Positions 1 through 58,256 of a stretch of 64,000 bases of DNA are shown one piece after another; within the stretch, counting starts at the first letter, position 1; the number at the start of each line of letters is the position of its first letter. The stretch is from Cyanophora paradoxa CCMP329 (Eukaryota > Plantae > Glaucophyta). Below the pieces are notes generated by a model. It was not told the DNA's origin. It saw only the letters and a program-made list of their open reading frames with translations, and ran no database searches. Both the position numbers and the translations under genes were made by a program. The DNA lies in contig QPMI01000082.1 of the NCBI GenBank assembly GCA_004431415.1, positions 13,029 through 77,028 of the forward strand. The letters are read 5' to 3'.

Positions 1-583
1 TACAACGAAAACGATAGACTCCTCTGTGGGACTCTTGGCGTTGGTGTTACAGGTACTCTATTTACCTCGGCAATCGAAGCCCTACTAATGGCCTAAGCAT
101 AGCAAACACTTCAATCGTTGATAGCGGAAGCGTCAGCTCTGGTCTATCCTTGAGAAACAACGGCACCGAACGACTGCTGTGCGGAACCGTCGGCGTTGGC
201 ATCACGGGTCGGCTCATCGTCTCGACGCTCACGGCGATGGAAACCGAGCCGTTTATTCGGATGCTCAAGGATACCTGACAAACTCGTCGAGCGATAGCCG
301 CCTGAAAGAAAATGTCGCGAGCATGTCGGGCATTCTCCCTCTTCTGCTGCAGCTGAATCCCGTGTCGTTCACCTGGAAGAACACATCCTCGGGGGTTCGA
401 AACGGATTACGGTCTCATCGCACAGGAAGTCCAAGGCGTCTTCCCGAGTCTCGTTTTCGAGAACGCGGATGGATTTCTCGGGTAAACTACGACAGGCTCA
501 TTTCCCTGTCGTTGAAGGCAATTCAGGAACTTTCACAAGAAGTTCAAACTCTCAAAGACCAGGTAGCGGCACTGGCGAGCTGA
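1..583 (+). CDS. C-terminus of a viral fibre/spike protein with a peptidase S74 intramolecular chaperone domain (frameshifted, 5'-partial)
   Basis: Motifs SSDSRLKENV, LQLNPVSFTW, GLIAQEVQGVFPSLV (alternate frame) and VNYDRLISLSLKAIQEL plus a coiled-coil tail. Upstream shaft repeats NENDRLLCGTLGVGVTG and NGTERLLCGTVGVGITG. Confidence 0.85.
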
Positions 584-603
584 TCTGGAACAACTAGGAA
601 TAA

Positions 604-2329
604 CTACACCGCGAGTATCACAATTCGACCGTTGCCACCGTCGCTGAAAGACGAGCCACCGTTGCCGCCCCTACCAATGCCTGCTGCGTAGTGAGCGTCT
701 CCGCTATTTCCTGCCACCTGGCCGGACCCAGGATACACCGTAGCATCCGTCAAGTTTCCTATGTAGCTCGAGCCACCGCCACCTCCAAACATTCTTGCTA
801 TTGGTTCTCTGACACTCCGCTCCTGCTGGACCCAGAGCCTCCACCGAAGTAACCACCACCACCACCACCACCGAACCTGTAGCCGCTTGAATCAGGCCCA
901 GTCTCTCCACCTTGGCGCAAAGTTCCCGGGTTGCTGGCCTGGCCCTGAGGCCACAACACCGGCTCCGCCAGCGTTTGGGTGCCTCCTTGAGCCGGTATCT
1001 CTCCGGTTACTCCAACCAACCCAGCCGCACCACCGGTCAACCCCCCGCCTACTCCCCCGCCGCCATTCGAATCACATGTACCCCACCTCCGGCCCCTGCA
1101 ACAACCAAGTCGGTCCCTGCAACGCGCTGAATTGCAGAACGACCACCACCGGCGCCGTTTTTGTACTCCGGATCGACGCTATGGCTCCAGCCCTTCCACC
1201 ACCTCCGTAGACGGTAGCAGTGGCAGTCCCCGATACACCCTTTGGGCCGCCGCATCCAACAACAAGGATGAGCGTCTCCCCGAGGACACAGCCAATGTAC
1301 CAACTACGCAAGCACCCGCGCCTCCACGGACCCCCGTACCTGCGCGTTCTCCGCCTCCACCCCGGCCGCCCATACGATGACACGCACAGCCACAGTCCCG
1401 TTGGTACTACGAAAGTCTGGTCGGCCCCGGTGTAGGAGAATGTACCCAAAACAGGAGCGTTTGCAGTTGTTGCACTGGCAGACGAGGACTGAGGGCCTTC
1501 CTCGCCGATCTGGTTGACGCCCTTGATGGTGTAAGTGTAAGTGGTTCCGTAAACGGTCGTTGTGTCCGAAAAGGGCTGCTCGTGTCGCTGGCAAGGAACA
1601 CGCCACCCTGTAGATGTTGTAGGAGACGGTGACGCCGTCACCGGCACCGACCACTCGAGCACAACAGGCTGTGCTGCCCCCGCCGCGGGGTTGCAGTGAG
1701 CCCAGTGGGCGCCCCCGGTCCGTGGTGACGTACGCCGCAATACTCTTCGGCCCTCCCTCCCGTGTTCGTCGCGGAGATCTGGTACTCGTACCCTGTACCC
1801 CAGACGGTGGTCGTGTCGCTGTAGGAGTTGGTCGCGGAGTCTGTGAGGTAGGCCCCGTCTCTGTAAATCTTGTATCCCGTCGCTCCCGTGGACGCAGTCC
1901 AGCTGAGGCTGACAGGCTGCTGCTGGTCGTTGGGTGCTGATGCCGTCACGTTCGTGGGGCGTTTGGCATAGTCCAGACCAGGAGCGGATCGGACTTGTCG
2001 TATTCGACACCGCCCACGATGCCGGCCACCTGGTAAGAGTATTCCGTGCCCCACGTAAGAGCAGTGCTATCGTCAATGTACGAGGTAGACAGGGCACTGC
2101 TCGCAAATCCGATTGGCGTACCGTTCCTGTAAATTCGAATCGAGTCCGCGCCCTCCATGGCCACCCAGTTGATTGTGACGACTATGGCGGGTTTCGGGAA
2201 GCCCGAAGACGCGGGCCGCCCCGGCAATAAAATCGCCGTAGGTCTGGGCCGTGCGGTCGTGAGCGTGGTGTAGGCTTCGATCTGCGGGCTGAAGCCGCCT
2301 ATGCCTTGGAAGAGAATGTAATTGCTCAT
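604..2329 (-). CDS. Fibronectin type III repeat protein with a C-terminal glycine-rich (ALK/LTK-GRD-like) domain; putative virion fibre/adhesin (several frameshifts)
   Basis: Three FN3-like units (INWVAMEGADSIRIYRNG..YSYQV; VSLSWTASTGATGYKIYRDG..YEYQISATN; ..YTYTIKGVNQIGEEG), then [33 protein letters not shown] and GGNGRIVI* across shifting frames. Confidence 0.75.
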
Positions 2330-2722
2330 GGCACCCTCGTGGTGTAGAGAAGCGACTGTGCGTAGGTTGTGGGCGGGGCTTTGCCATCAGAGCCCGTGCT
2401 GCTGCTGCCCTGTTCGCGAACCGCCGCCACGCGGTAGAGTCGCTGGGCCCCAAACTAAAGGGAGAGTCCGTGTAGGTGACGGTTGGCGCATTCACCGTGG
2501 CCACGAGATCCCAGGGCCGTTGATGCTGGTCGCCCTGTACACCTTGTACTTGACGGCGTTGGTGACCGCGACCCAGTTCAGCTGAAAGCCGTACGTACTG
2601 TTCCCGTTGTTGAGCACGGAGCCCGATCGCACCTGGGGCCTGCCCACAGTCAGCGAGATCGGCTCCACGCCATACTGCGGAGCCTGCACCACCTGCTTTT
2701 TCACGAATACGAAGCGGGGCAT
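2326..2722 (-). CDS. Small single-FN3-like protein (frameshifted; 3' end approximate)
   Basis: QLNWVAVTNAVKYKVYRATS..W.LVATVNAPTVTYTD is an FN3-like strand pattern. Start context GGAAAATG. Confidence 0.6.
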
Positions 2723-2760
2723 TTTCCTCTACGATCCGAAAAAATATCTGCCCCGGGTAA

Positions 2761-3437
2761 ATGACTTCCAACTGGTACCAGACCCTCAGCGGCTCACTTG
2801 ACGTTGGCAACAACACCAAGGATTTCGCACGCATACCCTCCGGCAGTTACGTCGACGTCTTTCTGCAGAATCCCGTCGTGATTCAGGTCGTTCAGAACGC
2901 CTACGCCACGCCCAAGATTTATTCCTACCAGCTCTTCTTCGACCCTCTGAGCCTCAGCGCAGAGGTTATCGAGCTGCTGCACGAATCAGGACTCGTGAAA
3001 AAGGTGGCACCTGCCACGGCCACTGCCAACGTCTTGCGCTGTCTCGAGGTCAAGTTCAGGGAGACGGGTACGGCCCCACCGTGAACCGGTACCCCAGTTC
3101 TTCGAATCTTCCGGGTACGGGAACTTACCAGATGAGGGGTACGCTCAAGGGCGACGTGCTCTTCACGAAATTCAATCCAAGTCCCGCGACCCTGGGGCCC
3201 TCTACACGGGCGGCAACCCACGCGGCTCGACTCTACCCCGCTTCCCCTTCACCTTTTTCAGGTTCCAGGTCTTCCCCTCTCCTACGCCGCCGACCAGCCC
3301 ACTTCAGCACGGGCGCCAGCCTCTGCGCGGAGCTGCGTGAGTGCTCGATTTCCTACGCGTACGGCACCGACGCTGACTCTGTGCCTGGGGCCCGCGTCAT
3401 GAACATCGGTGGCGACATCACCCTCTTTCACGGATAA
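2761..3437 (+). CDS. Unknown putative virion structural protein, paralog A (about 225 aa after frameshift correction)
   Basis: ORFs 2761-3084 and 3081-3437 join by a frameshift. Clear similarity to the next gene. Confidence 0.6.
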
Positions 3438-3460
3438 TCTTTCTCATTTGAGGTCGCAAA

Positions 3461-4271
3461 ATGCCGACCACCTCGGCCACCATCGTGAAGACCGTGTCTG
3501 CCGGCTCGATCGTCCCCGATTTCTACGGCAACGCTGGAACGTGGCCAACGCAGGGACGGACAAGGTGGAGTGGGACGGAAACTACGCCACCCCGCTCACC
3601 GTGAGGGTCCAGAATCCCGTCATGTTGCGCGTCACCTCCAACGATTTCGAGAATCCCGCCTCCTGCTCCGTGTACGTGTACTTTGACATCGACTCGGGCG
3701 TGAGCGCGGATGAGGCGGAGGCGCTCTGGCTCTCGGGCCTCCTGAAAAAGATAGAGCCCTCTGTGCCTGATCGGCCCGCCATTCGCGTGCTCGAACTCAA
3801 GTTCACCGCTAACACCGCCCTCACTCGCAAATTCGGGAATGGTGCGAATCCGAACATCAAAACGCATTTAGATGGCGCCCTCATCGATGCCACACACAAG
3901 ACCACGCAGGCCGTTCCCTTTGAGATGTACAACCTCTGGAAGATGACCGCAAAGGAGATGATGACGAATGCCACCACGGGCGGCGCCTCGGGTACCGATT
4001 ATTCATACGGCGCCTCGAATCCCGTACCCAGGTCTGGCCCCGGCTCCTCTTCACGAAATTCACTTTCAAATTGTACAACAACATCGCCGGAATGCCTACC
4101 TCTGGAATGGTCGTGGGCTCTACCCTCATGGCCGAACTAATTGAGGCAGAGGCGGACTACACGACTGCGACTACCAACTCGACAGCGCCAGGCGCCGGAG
4201 CCGAAGTTTACGTGGCCTGGGAAACGGTCGGTCGCGAGTACGACACCAAGATTCACACCACTAGCGTCTAG
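3461..4271 (+). CDS. Unknown putative virion structural protein, paralog B (about 270 aa after frameshift correction)
   Basis: ATG 3461 in CAAAATG context; pieces in ORFs 3409-4140 and 4071-4271. Shares QNPV, SGL.KK, R.LE.KF and L.AEL.E motifs with paralog A. Confidence 0.6.
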
Positions 4272-4625
4272 ACTGGCTAAGCTGCATTAGCACCTGTGTC
4301 GCCTCCATCATCTCCCGAATCTCCTCGCTCTTCTCCTGTAAATTGGCGTACCCCTCCTCTTCTTGCGAATCTCCGACATTGATGCCCAGCGCAGGTTCTC
4401 CCTCCTGTAGTCCAGCGGGTTGCCGTTGATGTGTTCCACGTAGCGTCCACGTGGCGACTTCCCGAGGATCAGCTGGGAGAGGTAGTGCTTGCGCCCTCCG
4501 AACGTCTTGCTCACCCTGTCCCTGTCCACTCTCCAGGGAAACTCCAAGGCACTCGGGGGTACGTCCGAGTTGACCAGGACGTTGTAGGCGACGTCTTGCG
4601 AGTCGGTGCACCGGAGCAGGGCCAT
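4261..4625 (-). CDS. HNH endonuclease (HNH_3, phage/large DNA virus type)
   Basis: YLSQLILG..YVEHINGNPLDYRRENLRWAS resembles the VDHINGN.LDNRR.NLR motif. The C-terminus ends at 4308 or, with one frameshift, at 4261. Confidence 0.8.
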
Positions 4626-4649
4626 TTTGCTCTAGGTTCGGAAAAACCT

Positions 4650-4729
4650 GGGACTTGGGACTTGGGACTTGGGACTTGGGACTTGGGACTTGGGACTTGG
4701 GACTTGGGACTTGGGACTTGGGACTTGGG
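4650..4729 (+). repeat. (GGGACTT)11-GGG heptamer array, module 1
   Basis: Perfect tandem repeat followed by AAGAGTT. Confidence 0.97.
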
Positions 4730-5156
4730 AAGAGTTGAAACCCAGGTCCCGGCCCAGACTTTCTCCAGGATCAGAAATTTGTCAGACAAGTCAGGTGAGT
4801 TTTTCTACCGACTTTTTTACTCCTACCACCCCTCGTACTCTTTTTTACTCGTAGTCTTTTTTACTCGTATCCCATCTCGTACCCTCCTTCTCTCGACATC
4901 TCGCACGAATACTCCTACCCCTCTTCACATCCTTTTTCGGTTGCATACTCTCGTGAGCTTTCATGTCCAGTTTCATGCTACAAGTCGTACACCAGTTCAG
5001 ACTCTACCTCGCTTGAAATCTCACCTGGAATGTCACCAGAAACGTCGTATCCAGAATTCCGTACCCCTTTCTAAGTCTGCCCGGTGGTTAGGGACTTGGT
5101 GCAGCAAACTCTCAGATCCAGAGAAAGTCTGGGCCCAGACCCTGAGTCTAACTCTT

Positions 5157-5201
5157 CCCAAGTCCCAAGTCCCAAGTCCCAAGTCCCAAGTCCCAAGTCC
5201 C
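5157..5201 (-). repeat. (GGGACTT)6 heptamer array, module 2, inverted relative to module 1
   Basis: (CCCAAGT)6CCC on the + strand, preceded by AACTCTT. About 65 nt of flank is also an imperfect inverted copy of 4730-4792. Confidence 0.97.
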
Positions 5202-5275
5202 AGGATCGCGCCAAGTCGTAACTGAATAGTCGGACAATTTTTACAAGTATGTACAGTGGAATGACGCAATACTAT

Positions 5276-6503
5276 TTACAGCATCTCAAAATCAGAGTCA
5301 TCATCGGAAACCAAGTCAATCGGTGCATCGGGCGCGGACTTAAGGGGAATGCGGGGAAGGGCCTGCGCTGCCTGCACTAAGTCCTGCCGCTCCTGCTCGC
5401 GCTGCGCCGCCAAGGCCGCTGCCGCCTCTGCCTCGCGCCGCTGCTGAGCCTCGACGCGCGCCCTAAGTTCCGCTGCCTCCTTCTTCTTGCGCTCGGCAAT
5501 CTTGGCCAGCGTCATCTCGCGACGAAGAAGGCGCTCGTGACGCAACTTGCGCCGGAGTTCGGCCATTTCGCGCTTGGCGATGATGCGCTTCTCAATGGTC
5601 TTGACGTGCTGAGTCAGGCGCTCGGTGTAGTGTGACGTCACGCGAGAACGGGCAATGCCAGCGCCGATCTTCAAGTCTTTTTCGTGTTCCTTGGCGGGAT
5701 TCTTGACTCGCTCGGAGTTGTCGGTGAATGACGTGGTCTCCATGAACTTCTTCTTGACGATTGACTTGGTCTTGATAATGCGGCGCTTGCGAGTCGGGTT
5801 TTCGTTGTCGCCTTCAGAGTCAGAAGACGACTCAGAGTCGTATGGAATCGGCACGTCAAAGTCGATGAAGTCGTTGATGTCAGACTCGGCGTCAGAGGCC
5901 TCGGACGTGGCGTCATCGGCGGGCTGAGGGGCGGGCTCGGCGACGGGCTGAGGGGCAGATGACGACGATGACGGAGGGGGGTAATTCGTGAAGACTTGCG
6001 GGGGGTAGGCCCAGGCGAGCGTTTCGGCGGCAGACTCGGCGAAAAGCTTGGGGTCGCCCCAGCCAGTGGGAGTCTTGACCCAGCCGGGGACGGGGGGCAC
6101 GTCGTCAGAGGGCTTGGGAGGGGGGGCCTTGGTGTTGCGCCAGTACGTGCCGGTCCACTCCCAGTCGGAATAAGGCCAGGCTGCAAAAAAATGGGAGAAA
6201 TCAGCCAAAGTCGAGAGGGAAAATCAGAGGGGCTCACCGGGGGGGCCATCGGCCCAGGCCTTGTAGCAGGGGTGAAGTTTGGCGCCTTCTTCTTCTTCGA
6301 GGGGGTGTACGAATCTCCCCTCGACGACGGCCTCGACGGTTTCGTGGAAGGGTACGAGGTAGAGCTCGCCTTCGTACGTCTCGTACTTGTACCGGAGCAG
6401 CTGAGCGCGCCGTTGCATGTCGGGGGTAGGCTGTTGTCCGGACTTGTGCAGATTGCGGGCGGCGACGAGGTCTATGTCGAGGGCGGGGATAAGGCTTGGG
6501 CAT
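5276..6503 (-). CDS. Spliced hypothetical protein of the element (Pro/Trp-rich, acidic, then basic coiled-coil); 5' end uncertain
   Basis: A 57-nt GT-AG intron at 6181-6237 (GTGAG..GCTGAT..TTTTTTTGCAG, with an in-frame TGA) joins ORF 6224-6418 in frame to ORF 5276-6208 (DGPP|AWPYSDW). A second acceptor-like CTGAC..GCGCAG lies just upstream of 6503. Confidence 0.65.
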
Positions 6504-7008
6504 CTGCGCCAAAGGGAAAATCGTCAGGCAAAGGCAAAACGTGAGGTGACTGTGAGGGCGGACTTGCACGGATTCGGAGAGGCAGAGTTTGCTTGGGCTG
6601 AGAGAGGCGGCGAACCCGTTTCAAGAGTGAGCCAAAATGGCGGCGGACCGCGGTTTTGTGGGTGATTTTTTTCGCGGTCTAGTTCGCAACGGAAAACGTT
6701 GCCAACTGGCCTGAAAAAAGCCAAATTTAGCGTTGGGCCGAAGGCAGAAAAAGGAGCCGGCCTGACGGAAATCGCCCGAGTGCGTCCGCCGAAGGTCGAG
6801 TCTCGGATGGGGGTACACCCTCAGGGGGCCCCTGGTCCCTCACCCTGGTAGTACCCTCTCAAAGGGATTTTCGAAGCCGTACAATTCTTGGTAAGTCTCG
6901 TAGTCCGGGCTGTACCCCTCACAATCTGCGGGAGCCCCATTGAAAGCCTCCGTCTGTCCTCTCTCAATTCCCTGCGGAAAAGACTGCGGTCGCTTCGAGC
7001 TTCGCGCG

Positions 7009-7308
7009 TCACGCCAGCTGGGCGTGGTCTATGATTGTTAGGGTTGTCGTAGCCTGGCCCACCAGCCTCACGAAATTTTCGCGTACGGCCTCGGGGAGAC
7101 TCTGGAAACGGCTCGTCGCGTGGAACTCAATCCATTCATTGAATCGACGCGGATATTGACGGATGACTTCAAGCACGCCCTGTGTGTTGGGCTCTGGTGT
7201 TATGTCGGGAATGTCATGTCCTGTGAGGTGCCAACGCCAGAACTCGCGCAGCCTTTCGAATGCCATCTGCAACTCAAAGGGGAAATCGTAATAGAGATTG
7301 CCTGACAT
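7009..7308 (-). CDS. Hypothetical 99-aa protein of the element
   Basis: MSGNLYYDFPFELQMAFERLREFWRWH..., AAAAATG start, protein-like composition, about 58 nt downstream of heptamer module 3. Confidence 0.55.
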   Translation of the reverse strand: MSGNLYYDFPFELQMAFERLREFWRWHLTGHDIPDITPEPNTQGVLEVIRQYPRRFNEWIEFHATSRFQSLPEAVRENFVRLVGQATTTLTIIDHAQLA

Positions 7309-7366
7309 TTTTCTCCCCGTCCGAAAATTTCCCCGCTTTTGGGTCCAGACTCTGATTTTAACTCTT

Positions 7367-7422
7367 CCCAAGTCCCAAGTCCCAAGTCCCAAGTCCCAAG
7401 TCCCAAGTCCCAAGTCCCAAGT
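7367..7422 (-). repeat. (GGGACTT)8 heptamer array, module 3
   Basis: (CCCAAGT)8 on the + strand with the same AACTCTT flank as module 2. Confidence 0.97.
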
Positions 7423-7513
7423 TTTCGATCGATTTCACGCGTGAAAACGGCACTTTTCGGCCTTTTCCGATTTTTCCTTTCTCGAGATCGCATTAATGCC
7501 CTCGATCTCGAAA

Positions 7514-7590
7514 TCGCGATCGAAAATGGTCGCGATCGTGAGAAAGTCGCGATCACCAGGGTCGCGATCGGCTCGTGATCGCCGCGATCG
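7514..7590. repeat. Cluster of TCGCGATC iteron-like repeats near the element end
   Basis: Copies at 7514, 7530, 7547 and 7562, with variants at 7573 and 7582. Confidence 0.8.
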
Positions 7591-7955
7591 CCAGCCTCGG
7601 AGGGGGTACCCCACAGCTGTTGCGGCGGTTATAAGAACCTCCGCAATCCAAGCGTCACTTCCGAGTCTCGAGCTCTCGGAGTTGACTTTTCGCGTTTGGC
7701 CCATTGATGGCCCTCCTATATAGATGCATGCGGATGATCAAGCTCCCGTCGACGTCGACGTCTCGTTACGTATACGACGCATGATCAAGTTCCCGTCTCG
7801 TTACCGTAGTACAATTAGGCAGATTTCGATTTCCTGCAGACCTAGCTAAATTAAAGCTAGCGAGCCGTGTTTGTCAAAAGTGCAGATCTAGATTTGTCTT
7901 ATCCGATTATAATTTAAAGAATACATCCAACCTGTAGCTACCCCCCGACCCCCGA

Positions 7956-8861
7956 TCATCTCCTACGCCCCCGGCGGGGGTCAAGACCCGGCCGCTGTGG
8001 GTCGGCCTGCTGTGCCGACCCTCCGATCTCGCGCCTGCAGACAGGGCAAGTTCGGTTGGCGTCGAACCACTGCGATATGCAGGCCTCGCTGCGGGGGCGG
8101 CAGGGTCGGATGAGGCGCGGTACAGGGCCGGGCCGGGCCCCCAGCGGGCGCGCGGGGGGCGCACTGGTAGATGTGGTCGCAGGGAAGCTTCATGACGCGC
8201 AAGCCAGCCGCCATCCGATCCTTGCACACCTGCGCGCGCTGAGAGCTAGCGGCCGGGCGCGCAGCGCGCGGGCTCGCCTGGCACTCCTGCGATGACTCGG
8301 CGCTCGTAGCGGCGTAGACCGGGAGCCTGGCGCGCTCAGCCTGGCTCACGCCCCGCCGCACGTTCGCCTCATCGAGACGGAGCAGCTCCTCGTACGACAT
8401 CCCCGGCGTCGTCGGCCGCCCTGCGCGTATGGGTCGGGGCCGCAAGACGGACGCAGGGGCCGGCCGCACCGCCAAAGTGAATTCCGAGGCCGCCGAGAGA
8501 CGAAAGAATCCTCTCCATGTCAGAGATGAGGCCGGCTGTTTCAATCCCCGATGCTGGTTCCCTCACCCGCGCCACATGAGGCGAACGCACTGCCCCGGAT
8601 AGGAGCTCGAGTAAGCGGAGCAGGGCCCAAACCGCAGGCGGGGCAGCACCGGCATGGCGGGAATGGGCGGCTGGATGATTTGAGAGAGAGGGGAGAGCTG
8701 GAAGCGTGGGATGCGTTGATGGAGACGGCGCGCTGCGCGATGGAAGGCTTAGAGCGGGCGCCGAGGCCACTCTTGAAGAGCGCGGCGTACAGGGAGAACG
8801 AGGTCGTGCCGTGCACGTGCTCTTGGAGTTCGTTGAAGCTCATATTCAAGAAATCGTCCAT
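7956..8861 (-). CDS. RING-H2 E3 ubiquitin ligase (multi-exon)
   Basis: MSYEELLRLDEANVRRGVS, then spliced CQ|VC..KLPCDHIYH|EACISQWFDANRTCPVCR. Confidence 0.85.
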
Positions 8862-9642
8862 ACTCCTACGGCCGACTCCGATTATATATAACAATAGCGC
8901 AGGCGAGAATATGATTATACGTGCCTGAATGCAGAACCGCCGAAGCTGCTACTTCGCGGCGCCGCGGGCCGGCCGCTGCTGCTCGCGCCTCCTGCAGGCT
9001 CGTACGATGACGTTCGCAATATCCTTTCCGGCGAGCGATGCATGGCCTGTAGGCGGCTGGCCGGGCCGGCGCTGGGCGGGCCGGGGCGAAGCTTCTAGCT
9101 CACTTTTTTTGAAGGAGGGGTACCGATCTCGCAATCGAGTCCAGGCCGATGGCCAGGCGCCGGCGCGCGCACCGACAGGCCGGCGCCGCGGTACCGTCGC
9201 CGAGTTGGATCCCGGACCGCCGCGGCTTCTGAGTCTAGCGCTATAGCTCACTCTTTTCTGCAGGAGGGCTACCGAACTGCAGGCTTGAGGCCACGCGGTA
9301 CCGGTACGTTTACGTACGTATACTAGTATACGTATACGGTGCGCATATGCATGCGCATATGCATGCGCATATGCACGAACATGCGCTACTGCTGCTGATG
9401 CGACGCGGCGCATGAGATTGCGCACGCGGCCGCGCGCGCGCGGTCGACGTCGTGCGCGTGCGAAGTCCAATTCAATTAAGATTAATGATTCGAGGCTTAA
9501 TTAGTGGCCTCGCGATCGGCCAGGGGGCACATCGGAGCTCGTAAGAGCGAGCCCGGTCCCGGCGAGGTCGTAAGAGCGAGCTCGAGGGTTCGAGAGGTTG
9601 GGGAAAAGTGACGGCCCGCGGCCGCGGTGCGGGGTTTGTGAG

Positions 9643-10672
9643 TCACGATACCGATTGCGAGGACCGGGTGAGGATGAATATGGAGCCCTGCGCCGGCAAG
9701 CGTGTGATAATCGGTGTGGTGCTACGGAGGGGGTTGGGCGCCATAGGATCTTAATAAAAAAGCGCGGGCGGGACGTCGACAGGGCGGGGCGGATGCGAGC
9801 CTTGTCCCCGCGCCCGATACGCATCTCAGGATCGAGGAACGTAGTGTCGAGCCAGCCTTCGGGGCGGTTCAGGAGGGGCAGGCGGAGCTCGAAGGGGAGG
9901 CATGGGAGCTTGAGGACCGCCGCCTCGAATATGACCCCCACGCGCCGCTCCGAGAGCACCGCGAAGCGCGCGTCGATTGCAAAGTAGGGAGGGGTCCCAG
10001 CCGACCCCCCCGCCCCGAAGGCGAGCTCCACCTTGTTCTGCACCCGGCCTTGCGCCACATCGATCGCCTGGAAGGCCCGTCCCGTCCTGACGAATTTCTC
10101 CCTCTGCATCGCTGTGTCAGCCAGTCACCTTGAGCTCGGCCGTCTGGACGCCGGCCGCGGCTGGTGACGCGTGCGGCGCACGGCGCTGCAGCTGGCCCGC
10201 CGCGCGCGCGCAGCCGCTCCGCGGCATACCGCAGCACCAGTGCGGGGCGGGAAATCACCTTGACCGGGTCACTCGCCGAGGCTGGCGAAGTCTCCAGTAC
10301 TTTCTGGCCCAGCGGCCGCTGCGGCCGCTCCTCCCCGCTCGCGCTCCAAGAGTCGCGCCCGCCGTCCAGAAGCGCGGGACCCGTGTAGATTAAGTCCCAC
10401 AGCCCGTCCAGGAGCTCCGCTCCTTCCTTTGTTGGCCTGCAGTCGGATTGTGCTTACTAGTACGCGTATTTGCCGCGCTGCACGCGGCCAGCATACCGTG
10501 GCGTAGGATTCGACCCCTCAAGCCTGTCCACAAGAAATTGGATTTCTCGCCTTTCAGCAGGCGAGACGCGCTTGCCGCGCTCTGTCGACGAAGCGATATG
10601 GATGAGCCGCTGCTTGTCCACCGGCGACGCTGACTGCGCTCCAGCGCGTGCTACGAGTGGGGCTGCGAACAT
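9643..10672 (-). CDS. PAP/fibrillin plastid lipid-associated protein (multi-exon)
   Basis: STERGKRVS..LVDRLEGSNPTP, LLDGLWDLIYT, FQAIDV..VQNKV, GWLDTTFLDPEMRIGRGDK|GSIFIL. Confidence 0.9.
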
Positions 10673-10761
10673 TGCTGGAGCGGGACGTGTGCTGCAGTGC
10701 CCGCGTTTAGCGGCACCGCCTTCGCCAGCCGGAATCGGACCCGCGGGTCGAAAAAGAGGCT

Positions 10762-10848
10762 GCGAGGACCAGCGAGGATCTGCAACAACCAGCGGGGACC
10801 TGCGAGGGCAGCGAGGACCTGCGAGGACGCAGCGAGGACCTGCGAGGT
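10762..10848. repeat. Degenerate 10-nt minisatellite (GCGAGGACCT-like) in the divergent promoter between fibrillin and the F-box gene
   Basis: About 8 imperfect GCGAGGAC copies. Confidence 0.75.
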
Positions 10849-11034
10849 CGGTGGAGGGGTACACTCGCTTTTTAGTGCGAAGCGGTCAGCTTCCTAGCCG
10901 AGCTTCCGGCATCGTGAGCCCCGCGGAGGGGTCGTAACGTCGTAGAGTGTCCTTTTTTCTGCTTAAGCACCCGCTTGCGAGCCCTTCACAATCGCCGGCG
11001 AGAATCGCCGCGGCCGGACCTGCCCCAAGACAAG

Positions 11035-12627
11035 ATGCATCTACCTGAACCCGAACCCGTCTCGATCTCTTCGCTGCCCTCGGAACTGCTGCTGCACGTC
11101 TTCTCGTTTCTCGACACCCAGGCCTTCGGGCGGTGTTGCTGTGTCTGCAAGCAATGGAAGGGTTTGGCACTGGAGTCGAATTTCTGGGAGATCCAGTGCA
11201 GGAAGGCGCGCCAGGCCATCTCCTCTGCTGGCCTCGTATCTCTGAACACGGCTGCAGATATGGGCGGACTGCAGTCCAGCTGCTCTCAAAGCCCACAACG
11301 GCAGCTGGAGAGACATGCTTGGCCGCCGCCCCCGCCTGTCTCGCGTTGGGTGCGTCACCCTCAGCTTTTGTGGGTCGTTGGGGCAGTGGCCGACAAGCCG
11401 CCCTGCAGCTATGCGACCGACCGAGGTCGCCGAGACGAGAACAAAGACAGCTACCAGGTTATGGAGTTCCACGGTGTCTTTGGCATATTCCACGGTCATG
11501 GGGACTACGGCGCCATCGCCTCGGAGTTCGTAGCTCAGAAGCTGCCGATCTACCTCCAAAACGAGCCTGAGCTCACTGCCCCAGGTTCGCGGACTGGCCC
11601 CTTCCTGCGAATGCGTTGACGCGGCTAACGTTGCTCTGCCCCCCAGGCGACCTCGAGAAGGCGGTCATCCAAGCTTTTCGCGGCGTCGAGGCCGAATTCT
11701 CGCGACGCCCGAAGGCAGAGACGGACACCAGTGGCACGTCAGCCCTGGCGGTGGTGTTCCGGGACCGCGAGGTCGTCATCGCGAACGTCGGCGGCTCGGA
11801 AGCCGTCCTCGGCCGGGCGCGCCCTCCTAACGCGAGTGCCGCGACTGGCAACAGTGGAGGGGCCGCGGGCAGTAGCGTTACGGGCGGCGGGAGCAGCGCC
11901 GCGGCTGCGAGTGGTAGCAGCAAGGCGGCGGAGATGGTCTACGAGACCGTGCAACTTTCGCACTCGCACCTCACCTATGTCCGCCCCGACGAGCGCGAGC
12001 GGTTCGATGAGTTTTCATGTATCCGCGGTCTTGAGTTGTTTGACCGCTTTCCTGTCGCAGTGTGCGCCAGGCGGGCGGGCGAGTGGAGAACGACTACGTT
12101 CACCCGATGTACAGCGCAGGCTACGGTCTCGTGCTCACGCGCTCCATTGGTGATGAGATCCTGAAGCCTTGGGGGGTCACTGCGGAGCCTGAGGTGCGGC
12201 TCGGCGCTGCCCGGGTGCGCGGGCGGGGCGCGGGGTCGGTGCTGAGGGCACGGGGCGGGCAGCTGTGGCGGCACACGTGGAAGGCGGAGGACAAGTTCAT
12301 CATCATGGCGACGCGGGAGCTCTGGAAGTTCGTCTTCGCGACGGACGCGGTGGATATCGTGCGGCGCTCGCGGCACCCGAAGGAGGCGGCGGAGGCCCTT
12401 GTGCGCGAGGCCCGCGGGCTCGGCGCCCCCGGCAACATCACCGCCATCGTCATCGAGCCCTACTCTCCCGCCTCGATGGTCGCCCGCGCCTCTCGCGCCC
12501 CGCCTCGCCCCTCTCACGCGCGCCGCAGTGCGCCGCCCGCGAGGCCCGCGAGCTCCCCACGGCGCGGGAAGCGCGAGATCTTAGCACTGCTCGCAAGTCG
12601 GCGGCGGGTCCGAGCACCCAATGCTGA
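11035..12627 (+). CDS. F-box protein fused to a PP2C/PPM-like domain (probable pseudophosphatase; multi-exon)
   Basis: F-box ISSLPSELLLHVFSFLD..CCVCKQW. PP2C scaffold GRRDENKD, VFGIFHGHG, SGTSALAV, IANVGGSEAV, LTRSIGD, GVTAEPE, FIIMATRELW, GNITAIV. Confidence 0.85.
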
Positions 12628-12943
12628 ATCGTGCTTCATCTCTATCGCTGCATCCGATTTCCCACCGGCCCAACGTTCACTCCCTCCTGGGCAGCCCTCT
12701 CCCTTTCTGTCGATCTGCCCGTCTCTCTCCTTTTCTCTTACATTCTTTTCTGCACCCTGCTGTCTCCTCTTCCGTCCCTTATCGCGCGTTTCCCTCGCAC
12801 GCGTTCGTTCGGCATCAAGTAGTTGTACTCTCTGGTATGAATATCCTCGTATATAGTCCGCCTACGTTTAGATTGTGCGCGTAGTTCTGTAGGTGCCCCA
12901 AACCAATTCTTGCCTACTAGGCTATGGATCCAGACGTCGACCT

Positions 12944-12974
<31 letters not shown>

Positions 12975-13069
12975 GTTCGCTGCCGAGCCTCGCCGGCGCC
13001 GCGGCCGCGCCTGGCCTCAAAAGCGTGGAAGTGTTAAGCGCTTATAATTAGCCGGCAGTCGGCGTCTAC

Positions 13070-13521
13070 ATGGCGAACTCTGCTGGCCCGTCGTCGGCAG
13101 CGGAGTTGCTGTCAGAAGGATTCCTCGCGAACTACACTCCAGTGCTCGACACCGTTGAGCGGCAGCTGCATGAAGTAATGTGCGCAGCGCCATGCGGATA
13201 GCGCTGCCCGCTTGCCGTGTTTGACGCAGCGACAGGGAGAGCCAACGCAAGCTCCTTGCCGAGTTCCAGGAGGAGAACACGAGGCCGATTCCCATTCACG
13301 TCTTGCAACAAATACACGAATCGGTCCGCACCGCGCGCTCCGGGAGTTCGATGCAGCGCGCTGACCGCATGCAGGTGGCGGCGACGTGGACCTACTCGCG
13401 CAAGATCGCCGCGCTGCGCGAGGAGATGATGCGGGCGCAGGAGCGCGCAGACATTCTGATGAGGCGCACGGTGAAACTTCGGAGGCGCGCGGCAGAAGCG
13501 GCGGCGAACCCCGCCAGCTGA
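13070..13521 (+). CDS. BLOC1S6: BLOC-1 subunit 6 (pallidin)-like
   Basis: LLSEGFLANYTPVLD..QLHEV|..Q.KLLAEFQEEN..|..YSRKIAALREEM..ILMRRTVKL follows the pallidin/snapin pattern; two short introns. Confidence 0.7.
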
Positions 13522-14298
13522 TGCTCTCGTTCTCATTCTCTGTACGTGCAATGCAGTCCTGGAGAACGTTTGCCCCTCAATCGGGTCCGCGCGCTGCTAG
13601 GACTACCGTAGTACAGGCGCCGCTTTTTCCTCGGGGGCGGGGCTGCCGAGGACCCGGACGTCTCCGGCGCAGGGCTTGAGCCGGGCGAGCTGATCCCGGC
13701 TAACGGCTTGCTATATATATGCCATGATGGCCAACGCGTACGCGTACGGCTGCAATCGACCCGACGGCCGGCTAGCAATGCCACTCATGATCAGCGACTT
13801 TTGCTCGTACAACGTTAACGGTACTCGCCGAGTCGGCCCAGTACTGCGCATGCGCACTGCGGCATGCCGGGCCGCATGCGCAGTGCATGTGCGCATGCCG
13901 CCCGGCGAGCCTCGGAGCTCGAGTCGCCTGCCACGGTCACCGGTTGCATGCGCATGCGCACTGCCGCAGTGCAGCTGCAGCGCTAGCTGGTGCACGTACA
14001 GCGCTAGCGCAGCCGCCGAGCTCGCGGATCAAGAGTTCCTAATTACAACTATACACATATGAACGGTAAATCTCAAGCGTCAGGCTATGACTGCGCCTGC
14101 GCGTCGCGTATGCTAATTTTCGACAACGCCTTTCATCTTACGAAAAATATTCAAGTACAACGCGAGGTCCAAAAGTAAACAGGTCTAGATCTATCGGGAT
14201 CGCGAGATTCTGCACGTTATGGCCTGTGCTTCGAGCCAGGTACCAATTGCAACCTTTCGACCAGTTTAATAGACCGATGATCTTGATTTAGAACGAAG

Positions 14299-16247
14299 TC
14301 AAGCGGCGGCGCCGGCCGCGGCCTGGGCCGGGGTGGTTGACGCGGTGGCCTGGTGGTGCGGGTGGGGGCGTGAGGGCCGCGGGCAAGGTGGGCGCTGCGG
14401 GACCAGCGCGGGGCGCACGTCGGAGGCGGGCTTGGGGGCGGGGTCGCCCTTGCGGGTCATCATCTTGGCGTAGAGGGCCTTCTCCTTCTCGCGGTACTCC
14501 TTCTCCGCCGCCACGATCCGCCCGTGCTCCGCCCGCAGCTCCGCGTTCCCGGGCTGCAGCTTGATGGCCCTCCCGCACTCCTCTTTCGCCCGCCCGAATT
14601 CCCCCAGCTGCACAAGGGTCAGAGGGGCGCCAGGGCGGGGAGGGCGGGGGTCGGGGCGGGCCATGAGGAGGGCCTGGGCGCGGCGGAAGAGGGCCTTGAC
14701 GTTCTCCTTGTCCTCCTCGAGGGCCTTGCCGCACGCCGTCTCCGCCTCCTTCGCCTCCCCGAGCTTCAGGCGCGCCTGCGCCAGGTTGAGGCACGCCGAC
14801 ACCTGCCGCCCGCGTCATCGCCGCGCGCGCGGCCCGGCGGGGGCGCCTGACGCGCCTTGATCTCCCGGATCTTGGCCTTTTGCTCGTCCGTCGCGCTCGA
14901 TGGCAGGTACGAGAAGAGTTCCAGGCACTGCCAGTATGGCCAGGGTCAGCGACGTAAACCGCGCATTCGAGAGAGGGGGGGGGGGGGGGGGGGGGGGAGA
15001 GGGGGAAGGGGGGGGGGAAGAGGTGAAGGGGGGTGGGGGTTCTGGTGTGCGTGTGTGTGGGGGGGGGACTAGGGGAAGAGGTGGCGTGTCGGTGGGATGC
15101 GCACGGCATCATACTTCTTGGCGCTGCGCGGCGTCGTCAGCAGGAGGAGCAAGCCGCGGGGCCGGGGGCGCGCTTACGCGGTTGCGTAGTCGGCGCGCTT
15201 GTAGAAATCGTTGCCGCGCTCCTTCCGCTTCACGCCGGCCTCGAGCTTCTCCGCGACATCCATCTCCCACGACTCCTTCTCCCACCCGGGCTCCGCGTTC
15301 TCGAAGCCCGTGAGCTCCACGTCGTACGTCGTCGTCTCCTGCATGGCGCCACCCGCACGTCAGGTCACAGAGAGACCATAGCGCGCGTTGTTCGGAGCCA
15401 AGGGTCCCCTAGCAAGAAGCGCGCCGCACCGTCTCAGGAATGTCGCCGCTGGTCCGCCGCCAGTTGCGGATTGGGTACTCCTTCACCTGGGCCCTGCGCA
15501 ACCCCGCCGTCGGTCCGGCTGGGCAACATACGATAATCCGCGCACGCGCACGCGCAAGCGGTCGGCCGCGCGGACGTACTTACCCGAACTCCGGGCTGCA
15601 AACGAATCGCGCCTTCTCCCCTGCCCGCATTGTCGCGATGCCTTCCTCCCAGCCTTTGATCACACGTCCCTAGAGGAGGATAGATGTCCTGTCGGTTCGG
15701 GTGGGATCGAGAAGATTCCAGATCGGAAAGCGGAACCTTGGAAAGCTTGAACTCGTACGGCTTGCCGTCTTCATTGCTATCGAAGTGAGTGCCATCCTCA
15801 CGGTACGCTGCGCGCGCGCGCCGGCACGTCAGCCTGCAGCTGGGAGCGGCGGCCGCGGCACGGTTCGGCTGAGCTTCGAATTTGAGGGCCGAGCACAGAA
15901 ATCGAAAATTGCGAGGCAAAATCAAACCCAGTACAGCACACCGTCAAAGCGAACGAAGCACTTGGCGTACGCTTCCGGCTTCGCTTCGTCTATATCTGAC
16001 TCCTTTAGCACGAACTTGGTCTGCATATCGCGCGTCAGCAGGCGGCATATCCGGACGAGCGCGTAGTATCAATGCGCACCAGGCCCGGTGCGAGCTCGAC
16101 GGCCTTGGACTTGTCGACGTTCTCCCAGCTGAGAGGGGGCTTCGACTCCTTCATGGAATCCGCGGCGGGCTCACCGTCGTCGACCTCATCCATGCTGACG
16201 TCGTCGGCAATGGGCTCTGCAACCTTCGGCGCGTCGGCGTCCGCCAT
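14299..16247 (-). CDS. FKBP-type peptidyl-prolyl isomerase with TPR repeats (multi-exon)
   Basis: EDGTHFDS, VIKGWEEGIATMRAGEKARF, YDVELTGF, KERGNDFYK, LNLAQARLKL, NVKALFRRAQA, KEKALYAKM. Confidence 0.9.
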
Positions 16248-16431
16248 TGCTTGCGGTGCTGGGACTGGTGTTGGATGGCGGCGGAGCGCTCAAATTCGAA
16301 TGCGCGAAATGCGCGGCGCGGCGCGAATTTATAGGCGGGGTGGGAATTCGAAGCTGCACGAAGCTTCGATGCGAGGAAGTCTACCCCCTTCGTACTGTAC
16401 TATGCGCAACATGTACCCGTGAACGAAAAAA

Positions 16432-17358
16432 ATGAACATCGCGCCCATCAATTACATCAAGCTCGGGCGCGCGGGGCCCAAGCAGAGGAGGGAAGCGCTC
16501 GCCGCGCTCCTTCCCCCAGGGCATCGTCTCTTGCCCGCGCCCGGCCTCCCCGCTCGGTCGGCCCCGCCCGGCAGCGACGCGTCGGACGAGCTCGTTGTGC
16601 GCCATGTGCTTCACGAGTGGGCGCATCGTTGGGCGCTCGCGCACGGCGCCGGCCATGTCCTGCAGATCCTGCGGATCTTGCACGACAACCCTGTGGACGG
16701 CGACAAGGACCTGTTCGGCAAAGATCGAAAGCGCCCGGGTGCATGCTTCTTTCGCGTTTATCCTGCTCGCAGACTTCCTGAGCACTTCGTCGCAGACTTC
16801 CTGATTGAGTTCGAGCACTTCGTCGTTGTGGTGGAGGTGGACGAGCGGGGCCACGGGCGCACCAACGCCTTCGCTCGACGCTTCCTGAGTGCCGCGCTCC
16901 GCTACAGGCGCTCCGCGGAGGACGCCCGGATGCTCAAGATCTACGAGCAGATCCTCGAGGTTCGTCAGATCCTCGAGGTTGAGCAGCCTCTGATGCGAGC
17001 ATGCGCAGATCTACGGGAAGCCAACAAAGTTCATTCGACTCGCAACGCCCGACTCGCAGTCCCAACGCCCCAACACGGCGACTCTCCTCAGTTCTCTCGA
17101 GCGCGTCGTGGCAGACGGAACACCCACGGAGCGCGAGTGGCGGAGCGCGAGCGCGAGCGCGCGCTGCGGTGGCGGTGGCGGTGGCGGAGCGCGAGCGCGG
17201 TGGCGGAGCGCGAGCGCGAGCGCGCGCTGCGCGCGGCGGCGGAGCGCGAGGCGCGCGGGCGGCCAGGGGTGATCCGCCGGGTCCCGGACTCCCATCGGGG
17301 CTCGCTTAGTCGCGGTAGACCTGTGGATCCTTCCTATTGGAAACGGAAATCTCGTTGA
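16432..17358 (+). CDS. Intronless PD-(D/E)xK/Vsr-like endonuclease of giant-virus type; C-terminus degenerate (possible pseudogene)
   Basis: ADFLIEFEHFVVVVEVDERGH..Y..EDARMLKIYEQ, followed by a local duplication (QILEV twice) and low-complexity GCGCGA repeats. Confidence 0.6.
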   Translation: MNIAPINYIKLGRAGPKQRREALAALLPPGHRLLPAPGLPARSAPPGSDASDELVVRHVLHEWAHRWALAHGAGHVLQILRILHDNPVDGDKDLFGKDRKRPGACFFRVYPARRLPEHFVADFLIEFEHFVVVVEVDERGHGRTNAFARRFLSAALRYRRSAEDARMLKIYEQILEVRQILEVEQPLMRACADLREANKVHSTRNARLAVPTPQHGDSPQFSRARRGRRNTHGARVAERERERALRWRWRWRSASAVAERERERALRAAAEREARGRPGVIRRVPDSHRGSLSRGRPVDPSYWKRKSR

Positions 17359-30282: not shown

Positions 30283-31912
30283 TCGCACCTCAAGTTCGGA
30301 AAGCGCGTCGGGGTCGGGTGCGGCGCGGCGGCGCGGGGGGCGGCTCGCCTCTTCGAGGCCGACAGGGCGGGGCGGCAGGGGCTTCGCGGAGACGTTCAAA
30401 GGATGGTGGCAGGGCCGCGTGGTGGCCATCAAGAAGATCATCCAGGCGCGGCGGGGCGCCCCTGCGGCGGGTCTCGCCTCATGGGGCGGCAGGTTGCGGA
30501 CCGGCCCCTCACGGAAGACGACCTTGAAGACTTCAAGAGCGAGGTGTGTGAGCGGCGGGGCTGGCGGCGGGTCCCGTACGCGCTAAGGCGGCGCGGGCAG
30601 CTGGCGCTGATGGCGAAGCTGTCGCACGAGAACATAGTGCAGTGCCACGGGGGCGGCGACCACCTCCCCGACCTCTTCATCGTGATGGAGTTCTGCGCCA
30701 GGGTCCGCGCCGCGCGCCCCCTGCGCCGCCCCAACGGGGGCCGGGGCGCGACCGGGCGGCAGGGGAGCCTCGCCTCGCTCTTGCGCAAGGACAAGACCGC
30801 CATCCTCGACTTCGAGGCCGTCCGGTGCCCTCGCGCCGCGCGCTGGCCCCGCCGACGCGGTGCTAACGGCGCGGGGGCAGGCGGATCGCGCTGGGGGTGG
30901 CCCGCGGGGTGGCCTACCTGCACGCCCTCGACCCGCCCCTCATCCACCGCGACCTCAAGTGCGAGAACGGTGCGCCTGCCCGCCGCGTACTGGACCAGCG
31001 AGCGCCTCACGCGGCCCTTCGGCAGTCTTCTTAACCGACGACCTGACCCCAAAGATCGGGGTTCGCTCTGGCCGTCGCGGCTCGTCCACGATAGCCTTTC
31101 TTCGCGCAGTTGACCGAATGAGTGCAGGACTTTGGCGTGAGCGTCCAGACGGGCGCCTCCTACATGATGAGCGAGTCCGGCACGTACCAGTACATGGCCG
31201 TGCGTGCCCCGCCCCTCCCCGTCTCGCCCGCCCTGCCGACGCCCCACAGCCCGAGCTTCTGCGCGGCGAACGGAGCAATGAGCTCGTAGACGGTGCAGGC
31301 CTCAGCACGCGCAGAGACACACGCGCCGTTGGGCGGGGGCCGGCTGACTCGAGCACGCAGTGTACTCGTTCGCGATGCTGCTGTACGAGCTGGTGACGCG
31401 GCGGGTGCCGTACTCGGACATGGGCCTGCAGTCGGGGGTGGCAGGCTTCCGGGCGGCGTACAGCGGGCTCCGGCCCTCCCTCGAGGACTGCCCCTGGCCC
31501 GAGCTCGCCGACCTCATCTCCGACTGCTGGGCCGACGCCCCCTCTGCCCGGCCCCAGATGTGCCAGGCCGCCCCCCCCCCCCCCCCCCCCCCCACCCCCC
31601 CCCCCGCCCCCCCCCCCCCCCCCCCCCCCCCCTCCGCCCCGCCCCGCCCCGTCGCGGCCCCCTGACGCGGCGCAGATCGTGGTGCGGCTGCAGCACCTGG
31701 TGGGCACGACGCGGCCGGTGCCCCCGAAGGAAGAGAAGAAGGAGGAGGAGAAGAAGGAGGGCCGCCGCTCCCTCGAGGTCCCCCGCAACCAGGGCCTCCA
31801 CGCCTCCCCTTCCCCCGTCCACCGCCCCCTGCCCAGCGCCAGCGCGCCCAAGCCTAGGCCCCTACCCGGGCCTTCTCCAGCGGTTCACCCCGTTTTTGTT
31901 ACACCTCTGTAG
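30283..31912 (+). CDS. Tyrosine-kinase-like (TKL/Raf-like) protein kinase, multi-exon; no own start codon found
   Basis: LKFGKRVGVG|GFAETF, VAIKK, HENIV, IVMEFC, IHRDLKCEN, DFG, GTYQYMA|PE, VYSFAMLLYEL, CWADAPSARP. Confidence 0.9.
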
Positions 31913-32980
31913 GATTTTCAAAGTTTCGAATTCGTGTGGACGGTCCCTAAGGGCCCGAGGGCCCGATCATCGGATCCTTCAGCCTACTAGGCTACGCGGG
32001 CCCTGCCGCAGTGTGTGCACGTGCACGAGGGTCCGACGGAACCGTAGCCACGGCATACGCATGCATGCGCAATTGATTGCGATTAATACTGCAATTTGCC
32101 CTCGCGATCGGGGCCGCGGCGCGCGGGGCCCGCGGCCGGCGCCGCGGGTCCCAGACTCCCAGCCTGGCAGCCTAGCTATAGCTATATATATATATAGGCC
32201 TGCAGGGCCTGCGCATGCAGCTGCGCATGCGCATGCCGCGCGCGCCGCGCGCGCGCGCGCGGGCCGGGTCATCGATCCCCCCCCCCCCCCACCCCCCCCC
32301 CCCCCCACCCCCCCCCCCCCCCCCCCCCCTCCCGCCCCCCGCCCCGCCCCGTCGCGGCCCCCTGACGCGGCGCAGATCGTGGTGCGGCTGCAGCACCTGG
32401 TGGGCACGACGCGGCCGGTGCCCCCGAAGGAAGAGAAGAAGGAGGAGGAGAAGAAGGAGGGCCGCCGCTCCCTCGAGGTCCCCCGCAACCAGGGCCTCCA
32501 CGCCTCCCCTTCCCCCGTCCACCGCCCCCCTGCCCAGCGCCAGCGCGCCCAAGCCTAGGCCCCTACCCCGGGCCTTCTCCAGCGGTTCACCCCGTTTTTG
32601 TTACACCTCTGTAGGATTTTCAAAGTTTCGAATTCGTGTGGACGGTCCCTAAGGGCCCGAGGGCCCGATCATCGGATCCTTCAGCCTACTAGGCTACGCG
32701 GGCCCTGCCGCAGTGTGTGCACGTGCACGAGGGTCCGACGGAACCGTAGCCACGGCATACGCATGCATGCGCAATTGATTGCGATTAATACTGCAATTTG
32801 CCCTCGCGATCGGGGCCGCGGCGCGCGGGGCCCGCGGCCGGCGCCGCGGGTCCCAGACTCCCAGCCTGGCAGCCTAGCTATAGCTATATATATATATAGG
32901 CCTGCAGGGCCTGCGCATGCAGCTGCGCATGCGCATGCCGCGCGCGCCGCGCGCGCGCGCGCGGGCCGGGTCATCGATCC
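31570..32980 (+). repeat. Near-perfect direct tandem duplication of about 700 bp (last kinase exon plus 3' spacer)
   Basis: 31570-32278 is repeated at 32279-32980; both copies begin in a poly-C tract and end GGGTCATCGATCC. Confidence 0.95.
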
Positions 32981-57078: not shown

Positions 57079-57723
57079 GGGGTAGGGTTAGGGTTAGGGT
57101 TAGGGTTAGGGTTAGGGTTAGGGTTAGGTTAGTTGGGTTAGGGTTAGGGTTAGGGTTAGGGTTAGGGTAGGGTTAGGGTTAGGGTTAGGGTTAGGGTTAG
57201 GGTTAGGTTAGGGTTAGGGTTAGGGTTAGGGTTAGGGTTAGGGTTAGGGTTAGGGTTAGGGTTAGGGTTAGGTTAGGGTTAGGTAGGGTTAGGGTTAGGG
57301 TTAGGGTTAGGGTTAGGGTTAGGGTTAGGGTTAGGGTTAGGTTAGGGTTAGGGTTAGGGTTAGGGTTAGGGTTAGGGTTAGGGTTAGGTTAGGGTTAGGG
57401 TTAGGGTTAGGGTTAGGGTTAGGGTTAGGGTTAGGGTTAGGGTTAGGGTTAGGGTTAGGGTTAGGGTTAGGGTTAGGGTTAGGGTTAGGGTTAGGGTTAG
57501 GGTTAGGGTTAGGGTTAGGGTTAGGGTTAGGGTTATGGTTAGGGTTAGGGTTAGGGTTAGGGTTAGGGTTAGGGTTAGGGTTAGGGTTAGGGTTAGGGTT
57601 AGGGTTAGGGTTAGGGTTAGGGTTAGGGTTAGGGTTAGGGTTAGGGTTAGGGTTAGGGTTAGGGTTAGGGTTAGGGTTAGGGTTAGGTTAGGGTTAGGGT
57701 TAGGGTTAGGGTTAGGGTTAGGG

Positions 57724-57764
<41 letters not shown>

Positions 57765-57855: not shown

Positions 57856-57896
<41 letters not shown>

Positions 57897-58215: not shown

Positions 58216-58256
<41 letters not shown>

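Follow-up and report, generated by a model that had tools for sequence, protein, structure and literature searches.

What is the compact block of genes that opens this stretch of glaucophyte DNA, where does it end, and is it viral? The stretch, called the window below, comprises 64,000 nucleotides of Cyanophora paradoxa CCMP329 (GenBank assembly GCA_004431415.1, contig QPMI01000082.1, positions 13,029 to 77,028 of the forward strand). An earlier note, written from the letters alone, took its first 7,620 nucleotides for the end of an integrated virus, and this is supported here by a junction with host DNA that is present in all three short-read DNA runs. The reading favored, with moderate confidence, is that the first 7.7 kb are the right-hand end of a multi-copy element integrated at TATATA, likely a small, nucleus-replicating double-stranded DNA provirus from the mriyavirus-like part of the continuum of Polinton-like viruses (PLVs) and mriyaviruses. 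The word virus is supported by a gene set of fibre, FN3 and single-stranded DNA-binding protein (SSB)-like genes.

Endogenous viruses of C. paradoxa are known as counts. For example, 366 major-capsid hits have been reported, with representatives that match giant-virus capsids by HHpred (PMC10120064), and adintovirus-like contigs have been noted (PMC8502044). Genes of viral origin are enriched in the methylated fraction of this genome, which has methylated regions derived from giant viruses (PMC12344493). The PLV-mriyavirus continuum has also been described (10.64898/2026.06.19.733378). Statements about these and other cited papers refer to the accessible parts of their text. A full-text literature search, with subscription papers and bioRxiv supplements outside its reach, found no description of the element; the anatomy of this family is undescribed in the searchable literature. 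New at this locus are the exact end, a shared upstream motif, an intron and a hypervariable, apparently recombining domain. The true end, high copy number, TA target, OB paralogy, heptamer arrays and intron are absent from the earlier note.

The Right-Hand End

The end of the element and its surroundings are made up as follows.

1..7716, no strand: integrated virus-like element, right-hand 7.7 kb; multi-copy, running on leftward past the window
7425..7716, no strand: terminal non-coding region, CGCGATC-rich repeats and then a stem-loop cluster that reaches the element end
7717..7722, no strand: TATATA at the junction, common to every copy seen; target site or recombination core
7944..9108, minus strand: flanking host gene, RING-finger-like and spliced, outside the element and not disrupted by the insertion

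Short-read contigs of three DNA runs, and of one run guessed to be RNA, were aligned over 7440-12000. In each DNA run a single contig covers 7696-12000 (4305 bp) without a difference, and its depth is flat (78, 33 and 108). Summed depth in the bins of 7440-7745 is 1,900-17,300, so that the terminal bins are 57-220 times deeper than the host flank, a ratio of summed contig depths and not a copy number. Among the matches listed, 11, 10 and 12 contigs in the three runs track the window to 7722-7734 and then pass into other flanks. Every one of these contigs thus shares ...CCCTCC TATATA (7717-7722). Single-copy host DNA begins right after TATATA, and the end lies at 7716-7722, about 100 bp further right than the 7620 first proposed. 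No empty-site contig was found among the matches listed. This is a real integrated element in a glaucophyte, not contamination.

The insertion is intergenic, about 220 bp beyond the 3' end of the host gene at 7944..9108. The splicing of that gene is seen as six joints within one contig of run X15 (the run guessed to be RNA), and its RING label is a sequence reading without a passed profile test. Coverage in run X15 is absent over 7440-7898. The last 123 nt of the element fold as a stem-loop cluster, more stable than every one of 200 shuffles on one strand and than 199 on the other. DNA fold z is -4.2 and -3.6 for these 123 nt on the two strands, and -3.8 for the 298-nt terminal region. The last 6.9 kb or so of the window are TTAGGG telomere (57079-64000), which places the insertion about 49 kb from the chromosome end. 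A telomere-integrating element was considered and rejected, as its arrays are internal heptamers and the host telomere is hexameric and 49 kb off.

Variant ends were also observed. In the subterminal repeats (7440-7600) the window copy departs from most other copies at eight positions, so end variants exist. An 8.1-kb single-depth contig, present in all three DNA runs, carries a diverged terminus with 5 differences in 61 bases relative to 7662-7722, and 600 or more bases on the inner side of that terminus do not match the window copy; it is either a divergent subfamily or a relic end. In the host part, 31577-32866 holds a tandem duplication of about 700 bp, 97-100% identical, which may be an assembly artefact.

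The fixed junction bears on how the element arrived. An ordinary PLV (Polisuviricotina), inserted by an rve integrase or a tyrosine recombinase (YR) and seen here by its accessory arm, is a rather unlikely explanation. The element end can be read as ...CT-3', as in Polinton ends, and a fixed 6-bp core would fit a tyrosine recombinase. TATATA is, however, common to all flanks seen, and a low-specificity rve integrase would not yield one fixed hexamer. S74 fibres occur across PLVs and HNH genes are common in them, and a few Cyanophora PLVs are known (PMC12220804); the host also holds many PLV capsid genes (PMC10120064). Against this, SSBs of the T7 type, the type predicted below, have been described for gamadviruses and giant viruses (PMC11253617), and in the accessible text not for PLVs.

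Copies in the Host Genome and Relatives

The element is present in many copies. A protein search with the gene at 3461 returned 14 proteins, 12 of them EukProt models of C. paradoxa, and all 28 matches of the gene at 5276-6503 came from the same species. Models of the pair of genes at 2761 and 3461 (OB-A and OB-B, below) lie on at least 40 contigs, and on at least 51 when models of the coiled-coil gene at 5276-6503 are added (both counted from model names). Of these coiled-coil models, 17 of 28 sit within three gene numbers of an OB model. Outside C. paradoxa only three proteins matched (P0013, P0014 and P0045), on contigs of 1.0-1.9 kb. A profile search of 1.84 billion representatives gave 9 matches, 8 from C. 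paradoxa and one Logan protein. Relatives with gene context numbered zero in viral contigs (protein and pattern searches) and zero in metagenome contigs.

Bacterial prophage DNA fused to an algal contig through mis-assembly would account for the phage-like domains. According to the earlier note, such a chimera would show in best homologues from a prophage and a junction that no reads span. Near-identical homologues are instead dozens of copies across contigs of the same eukaryotic assembly, and many independent junctions appear in the three short-read runs. A GT-AG intron, read from the sequence, and phage matches just ~30% identical also speak against a prophage. With no bacterial flanks or close phage homologues found, this explanation is refuted by the short-read junctions and its probability is close to nil.

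Some copies differ in kind. P0011 and P0041 (64-66% identity) represent a more remote OB-B type within this genome, which therefore holds three subfamilies or more. In P0024, another copy, the gene model passes from OB-B directly into the translation of the repeat array, which hints either that this copy has lost sequence between gene and array or that the splice is false. The capsid genes in the supplement of PMC10120064 (6 representatives) are on contigs other than the 51, a sample that neither ties a capsid to the element nor separates the two. In six runs guessed to be RNA, the share of the words of 1-9900 that is present is 0.30-0.38, above the 22% that the host part makes up, which is a hint only.

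A Pair of Predicted OB-Fold Proteins

Two adjacent genes form a related pair.

2761..3437, plus strand: OB-A, 226 aa in intact copies, predicted OB fold; T7 gp2.5-type SSB ranks first
3461..4271, plus strand: OB-B, 270 aa in intact copies, predicted OB fold; T7 gp2.5-type SSB ranks first

The two are paralogous, with 40% identity over 68 residues (E 7e-13) and an end-to-end alignment. Neither has a match in Pfam, PHROG, NCBIfam or PDB sequence searches. Models built from different alignments were compared with 48,161 chains. That of OB-B matches 4klk, T7 gp2.5 and the Enc34 SSB at Z 7.5, 7.3 and 6.6 (rmsd, root-mean-square deviation, 3.5-4.6; 114-124 residues aligned), and the next row falls to 5.4. 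For OB-A, T7 gp2.5 (Z 4.3) and Enc34 (Z 3.8) are level with other OB folds, and the top match has an rmsd of 4.8 over 114 residues. Both top-50 lists consist mostly of OB folds. OB-A and OB-B are thus predicted, from low-confidence models, to be OB-fold SSBs of the T7 type.

In the window copy both genes are broken. Compared with intact sister proteins, OB-B is identical at 268 of 268 aligned codons apart from two 1-base losses, and OB-A at 213-214 of 222 with four such losses. All six breaks are single-base losses, in agreement with the earlier statement that disruptions are frameshifts rather than stops. Five of the six are near runs of three or more equal bases, which is weak alone against a background of 43%. 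The short-read contigs carry one extra base at 7608, at full depth in all three runs; for the 4.3 kb of host, one indel was recorded. As all breaks are 1-base losses and one gene is otherwise identical throughout, they are likely assembly errors, with unpolished repeats as the simplest cause. Multi-copy viral inserts are known to show frameshift artefacts of this kind (PMC10120064). The idea of an intact, poorly polished element therefore gains support for these two genes, to which the intact-sister comparison applied, and the element is probably intact.

Genes for Likely Virion Surface Proteins and Other Contents

The other genes, apart from the one treated in the next section, are these.

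1..583, plus strand: fibre-type protein, C-terminal part with a Peptidase_S74 chaperone domain at its end; frame breaks in the window copy
604..2329, minus strand: three FN3-like repeats and a glycine-rich C-terminal domain; frame breaks in the window copy
2326..2722, minus strand: small protein, a single weak FN3-like repeat; likely stop codon overlapping the start that follows (ATGA)
4308..4625, minus strand: predicted free-standing HNH endonuclease, intact open reading frame (ORF); Pfam HNH_3 and PHROG HNH families
6821..7308, minus strand: orphan ORF, 99 codons to 7009; may reach further left across frame breaks

The S74, HNH and two FN3 proteins named in the earlier note were all recovered, at different strengths. 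Peptidase_S74 (125-580, E 1.9e-6) and HNH_3 (4311-4625, E 1.6e-7) are above the Pfam cut-off. The S74 protein also matches PHROG tail-fibre and baseplate families, its best phage matches being those of ~30% identity. The fn3 hit at 1641-2066 (E 7.8e-4) is below the cut-off; the three repeats of 604-2329 resemble one another (E between 4e-10 and 4e-3 for pairs) and, weakly, FN3 domains of solved structure (best E 0.002). The repeat of 2326-2722 matches the middle one of 604-2329 (E 1e-4), giving four repeats across two genes. The glycine-rich part of the larger protein was seen in the sequence and had no family match, and the frame 1075-2181 had no phage match. The 604..2329 product is likely a virion surface protein. 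No homologue was found for the ORF at 7308, and Rfam and tRNA searches gave no match.

Genes are densely packed in the first 7.7 kb, of which gene calls make about 81% coding. The divergent ATGs at 2722 (minus) and 2761 (plus), 38 bp apart, are as first described. Of the 7 genes that start inside the window, 5 have the shared AAATG start, and those at 2329 and 6503 lack it; AAAATG occurs 8 times per 7.6 kb of element and 7 times per 49 kb of host. GC is 0.58 in the element and 0.65-0.68 in the host part. The element, which the earlier note set apart from the intron-rich host genes, is not wholly intronless, having a likely intron at 6181-6237.

A Likely Spliced, Hypervariable Gene

The gene with the likely intron has the following parts.

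5276..6503, minus strand: gene, likely spliced, for a protein with a variable N-terminal domain, an acidic linker, a basic stretch like a nuclear localization signal and a coiled coil
6181-6237, minus strand: likely intron, a 57-nt GT...AG segment of host intron size
6504-6569, minus strand: possible intron in the 5' untranslated region, a 66-nt GT-AG segment ahead of the start

The sole in-frame stop of the frame falls within the 57-nt GTGAG...TTTTTTGCAG segment, and host introns measured on short-read contigs over 7440-12000 are 48-113 nt long. The gene thus likely carries a GT-AG intron of host size. Its protein has no known homologue beyond C. paradoxa and no known family, and its N-terminal domain has no match in the Atlas.

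Variability was measured on the 11 least-corrupted of 25 aligned models (3 of the 28 matches were not aligned). Between copies, the N-terminal part is 54% identical at the median (36-98% over 45 sufficiently overlapping pairs), compared with 92% for the body (80-99%, 55 pairs). Two N-terminal types and two mid-block types are found in all four combinations. This pattern indicates that copies recombine; a chimeric assembly is a less likely cause. The presence of a hypervariable domain next to a conserved body suggests selection, either among copies or against the host. The product may be considered a candidate regulator in view of its basic stretch and coiled coil and of the intron in its gene.

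Upstream Motif and Heptamer Arrays

Two kinds of short sequence recur in the non-coding parts of the element.

2720..2760, no strand: 38-bp divergent gap with TTTTC[C/G]GA-N11/12-ATG; motif again at 4623-4645 and 7306-7327
4649..4765, plus strand: repeat unit 1, 11.7 perfect copies of a 7-bp unit and a conserved ~35-bp flank; candidate iteron block
5121..5202, minus strand: repeat unit 2, 6.7 copies and flank; inverted relative to unit 1 across 355 bp
7340..7422, minus strand: repeat unit 3, 8.1 copies and flank; ~300 bp inside the element end

The upstream motif has three matches in 64 kb, every one at an element gene start. An expectation of 0.06, and no case of three matches in 100 shuffles, is an optimistic statistic, as the motif was defined after its three sites had been seen.

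Units 1 and 2 are 90% complementary over 82 nt, and unit 3 is 95% identical to unit 2 over 73 nt. The heptamer arrays may be regarded as candidate iterons. Between the two inverted units, the minus strand of the 355-bp segment 4766-5120 is purine-rich; the segment also has short repeats and a basic ORF of 43 codons, and could invert or form a loop. A heptamer pattern search found the same or similar arrays in intergenic parts of two viral contigs (L001, 9900-10062; L002, 9960-10040). These were rejected as relatives, since they look like unrelated tailed phages and have no tblastx match to the element. Their arrays, unaccompanied by protein similarity, indicate that such heptamers are not specific to it.

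Proposed Identity and Mechanism

Several points weigh against a mriyavirus-like provirus. Mriyaviruses are described as lacking integration genes (10.64898/2026.06.19.733378). The 7.7 kb in the window hold no capsid, packaging ATPase, viral late transcription factor (VLTF), HUH, helicase, replicase or integrase gene. AlphaFold confidence (pLDDT) for the paralogues is low, 40 for OB-B and 54 for OB-A, and the Z of both models stays below 8, in the range the tool rates common. The BFVD library of viral structures gave no match at E<=0.001. In the ESM Atlas the neighbours are coat-like clusters of Cressdnaviricota, with scores of 0.83-0.86 and a recognition of 1412 that the tool itself rates as weak. 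The flanks of the repeat units fold no better than shuffles (z +0.8 to +1.7), on which ground a stem-loop nick site beside the arrays was also rejected. Finally, the host contig extends just 21-27 bases into the element, short of the bridging threshold of 31, a contig break that is expected where a high-copy repeat begins.

Two further explanations arise from these points. The coat-like neighbours, together with two adjacent, beta-rich paralogues, would fit single-jelly-roll capsid proteins, and the element would then be a virus of a new kind whose shell is made of two proteins. The ESM scores are below 0.9 with weak recognition, both models match OB folds, if with low confidence, and a viral capsid is in neither top 50; this explanation is highly improbable. 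The lack of a capsid gene in these 7.7 kb would also fit a capsid-less satellite or giant transposon that replicates via single-stranded DNA, has its own fibre proteins and is packaged in a capsid borrowed from another virus resident in the host. Its many copies, terminal hairpins and single fixed target recall a transposon. Such an element is nonetheless quite unlikely: three genes of virion-surface type are retained, and a genome of 35-45 kb would have space for a capsid module outside the stretches examined.

The mriyavirus-like provirus remains the preferred reading, in which behavior like that of a mriyavirus is inferred for an element with no mriyavirus core gene within the window. Such a provirus would normally be repressed through host CpG methylation. 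Once the provirus was activated, the gene with the intron would be transcribed by host RNA polymerase II and processed by the spliceosome, and its product would act as an early regulator. A second class of genes, namely the FN3 operon, the HNH gene, the terminal ORF and possibly the divergent SSB pair, would be driven from the TTTTC[C/G]GA motif. The heptamer arrays would serve as iterons for a replication initiator whose gene would lie further to the left, and strand-displacing or rolling-circle copying would expose single strands for the SSB pair to coat. Terminal hairpins would mark these strands for excision and re-insertion at TATATA, and the virion would bear the S74 fibre and the FN3/glycine-rich proteins on its surface.

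A bolder proposal is offered tentatively, and is doubtful as a whole. The copies could belong to an undescribed family of eukaryotic DNA viruses that integrate, or of satellites that borrow a capsid, and would insert at TATATA without a classical integrase via hairpin-marked single-stranded ends. They would use a two-subunit SSB on heptamer-array origins, and a spliced regulator that swaps N-terminal domains would create specificity (immunity or exclusion) groups in one genome.

The route by which mriyavirus-like viruses, which lack a recognized integrase, enter host chromosomes is an open question. To our knowledge, Yaravirus is the only isolated mriyavirus, and we know of no isolated virus of a glaucophyte. 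Dozens of near-intact, recombining copies with one fixed target, in an alga that can be cultured, make integration, reactivation and promoter use testable.

Comparison with Known Systems

Mriyaviruses are defined by a capsid, ATPase, VLTF2/3, RuvC and HUH, and a T7-like SSB is a conserved gene of the 'Gamadviridae' (PMC11253617). That family of the class Mriyaviricetes (Pleurochrysis endemic viruses and Phaglo-G; PMC11253617; 10.1101/2022.07.28.501842) likewise resides in algal genomes. Its T7-like OB-fold SSB (PEV_26) is of the fold class that the low-confidence models predict for OB-A and OB-B. Phaglo-G is GC-rich (61%) with short tandem repeats at its flanks, and the family has no recognized integrase, a likeness to an element known here from its 7.7-kb end. 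In contrast, the element has two SSB-like paralogues rather than one, and none of the 12 core genes inside the window. It also differs in its glaucophyte host, its tens of copies, its fixed TATATA junction and its intron-bearing gene.

T7 gp2.5-type SSBs (1je5, 5odk, 4klk) are the top structural matches of both paralogue models, which are of low confidence, and the paralogues are only 8-11% identical to them. In Tetraselmis virus 1 the upstream motif TCCGGA (10.1101/2022.07.28.501842) is one base longer than the core of the element's motif, which is a lead only.

Endogenous PLVs of protists (PMC10120064, PMC12220804) share high copy number, GC below that of the host, an S74 fibre and HNH, as well as frameshift artefacts in poorly polished assemblies (PMC10120064). 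Unlike them, the element has no PLV hallmark gene in its window part, and has a fixed TA target and an SSB pair. The mriyavirus-like PLV groups Zora/VC102, VC218 and VC134 (10.64898/2026.06.19.733378) mostly carry rve or YR integrases, and the main text of that paper makes no mention of Cyanophora. These groups are integrating viruses of PLV size with giant-virus-like capsids, some with HUH, and would be the most natural neighborhood for the element.

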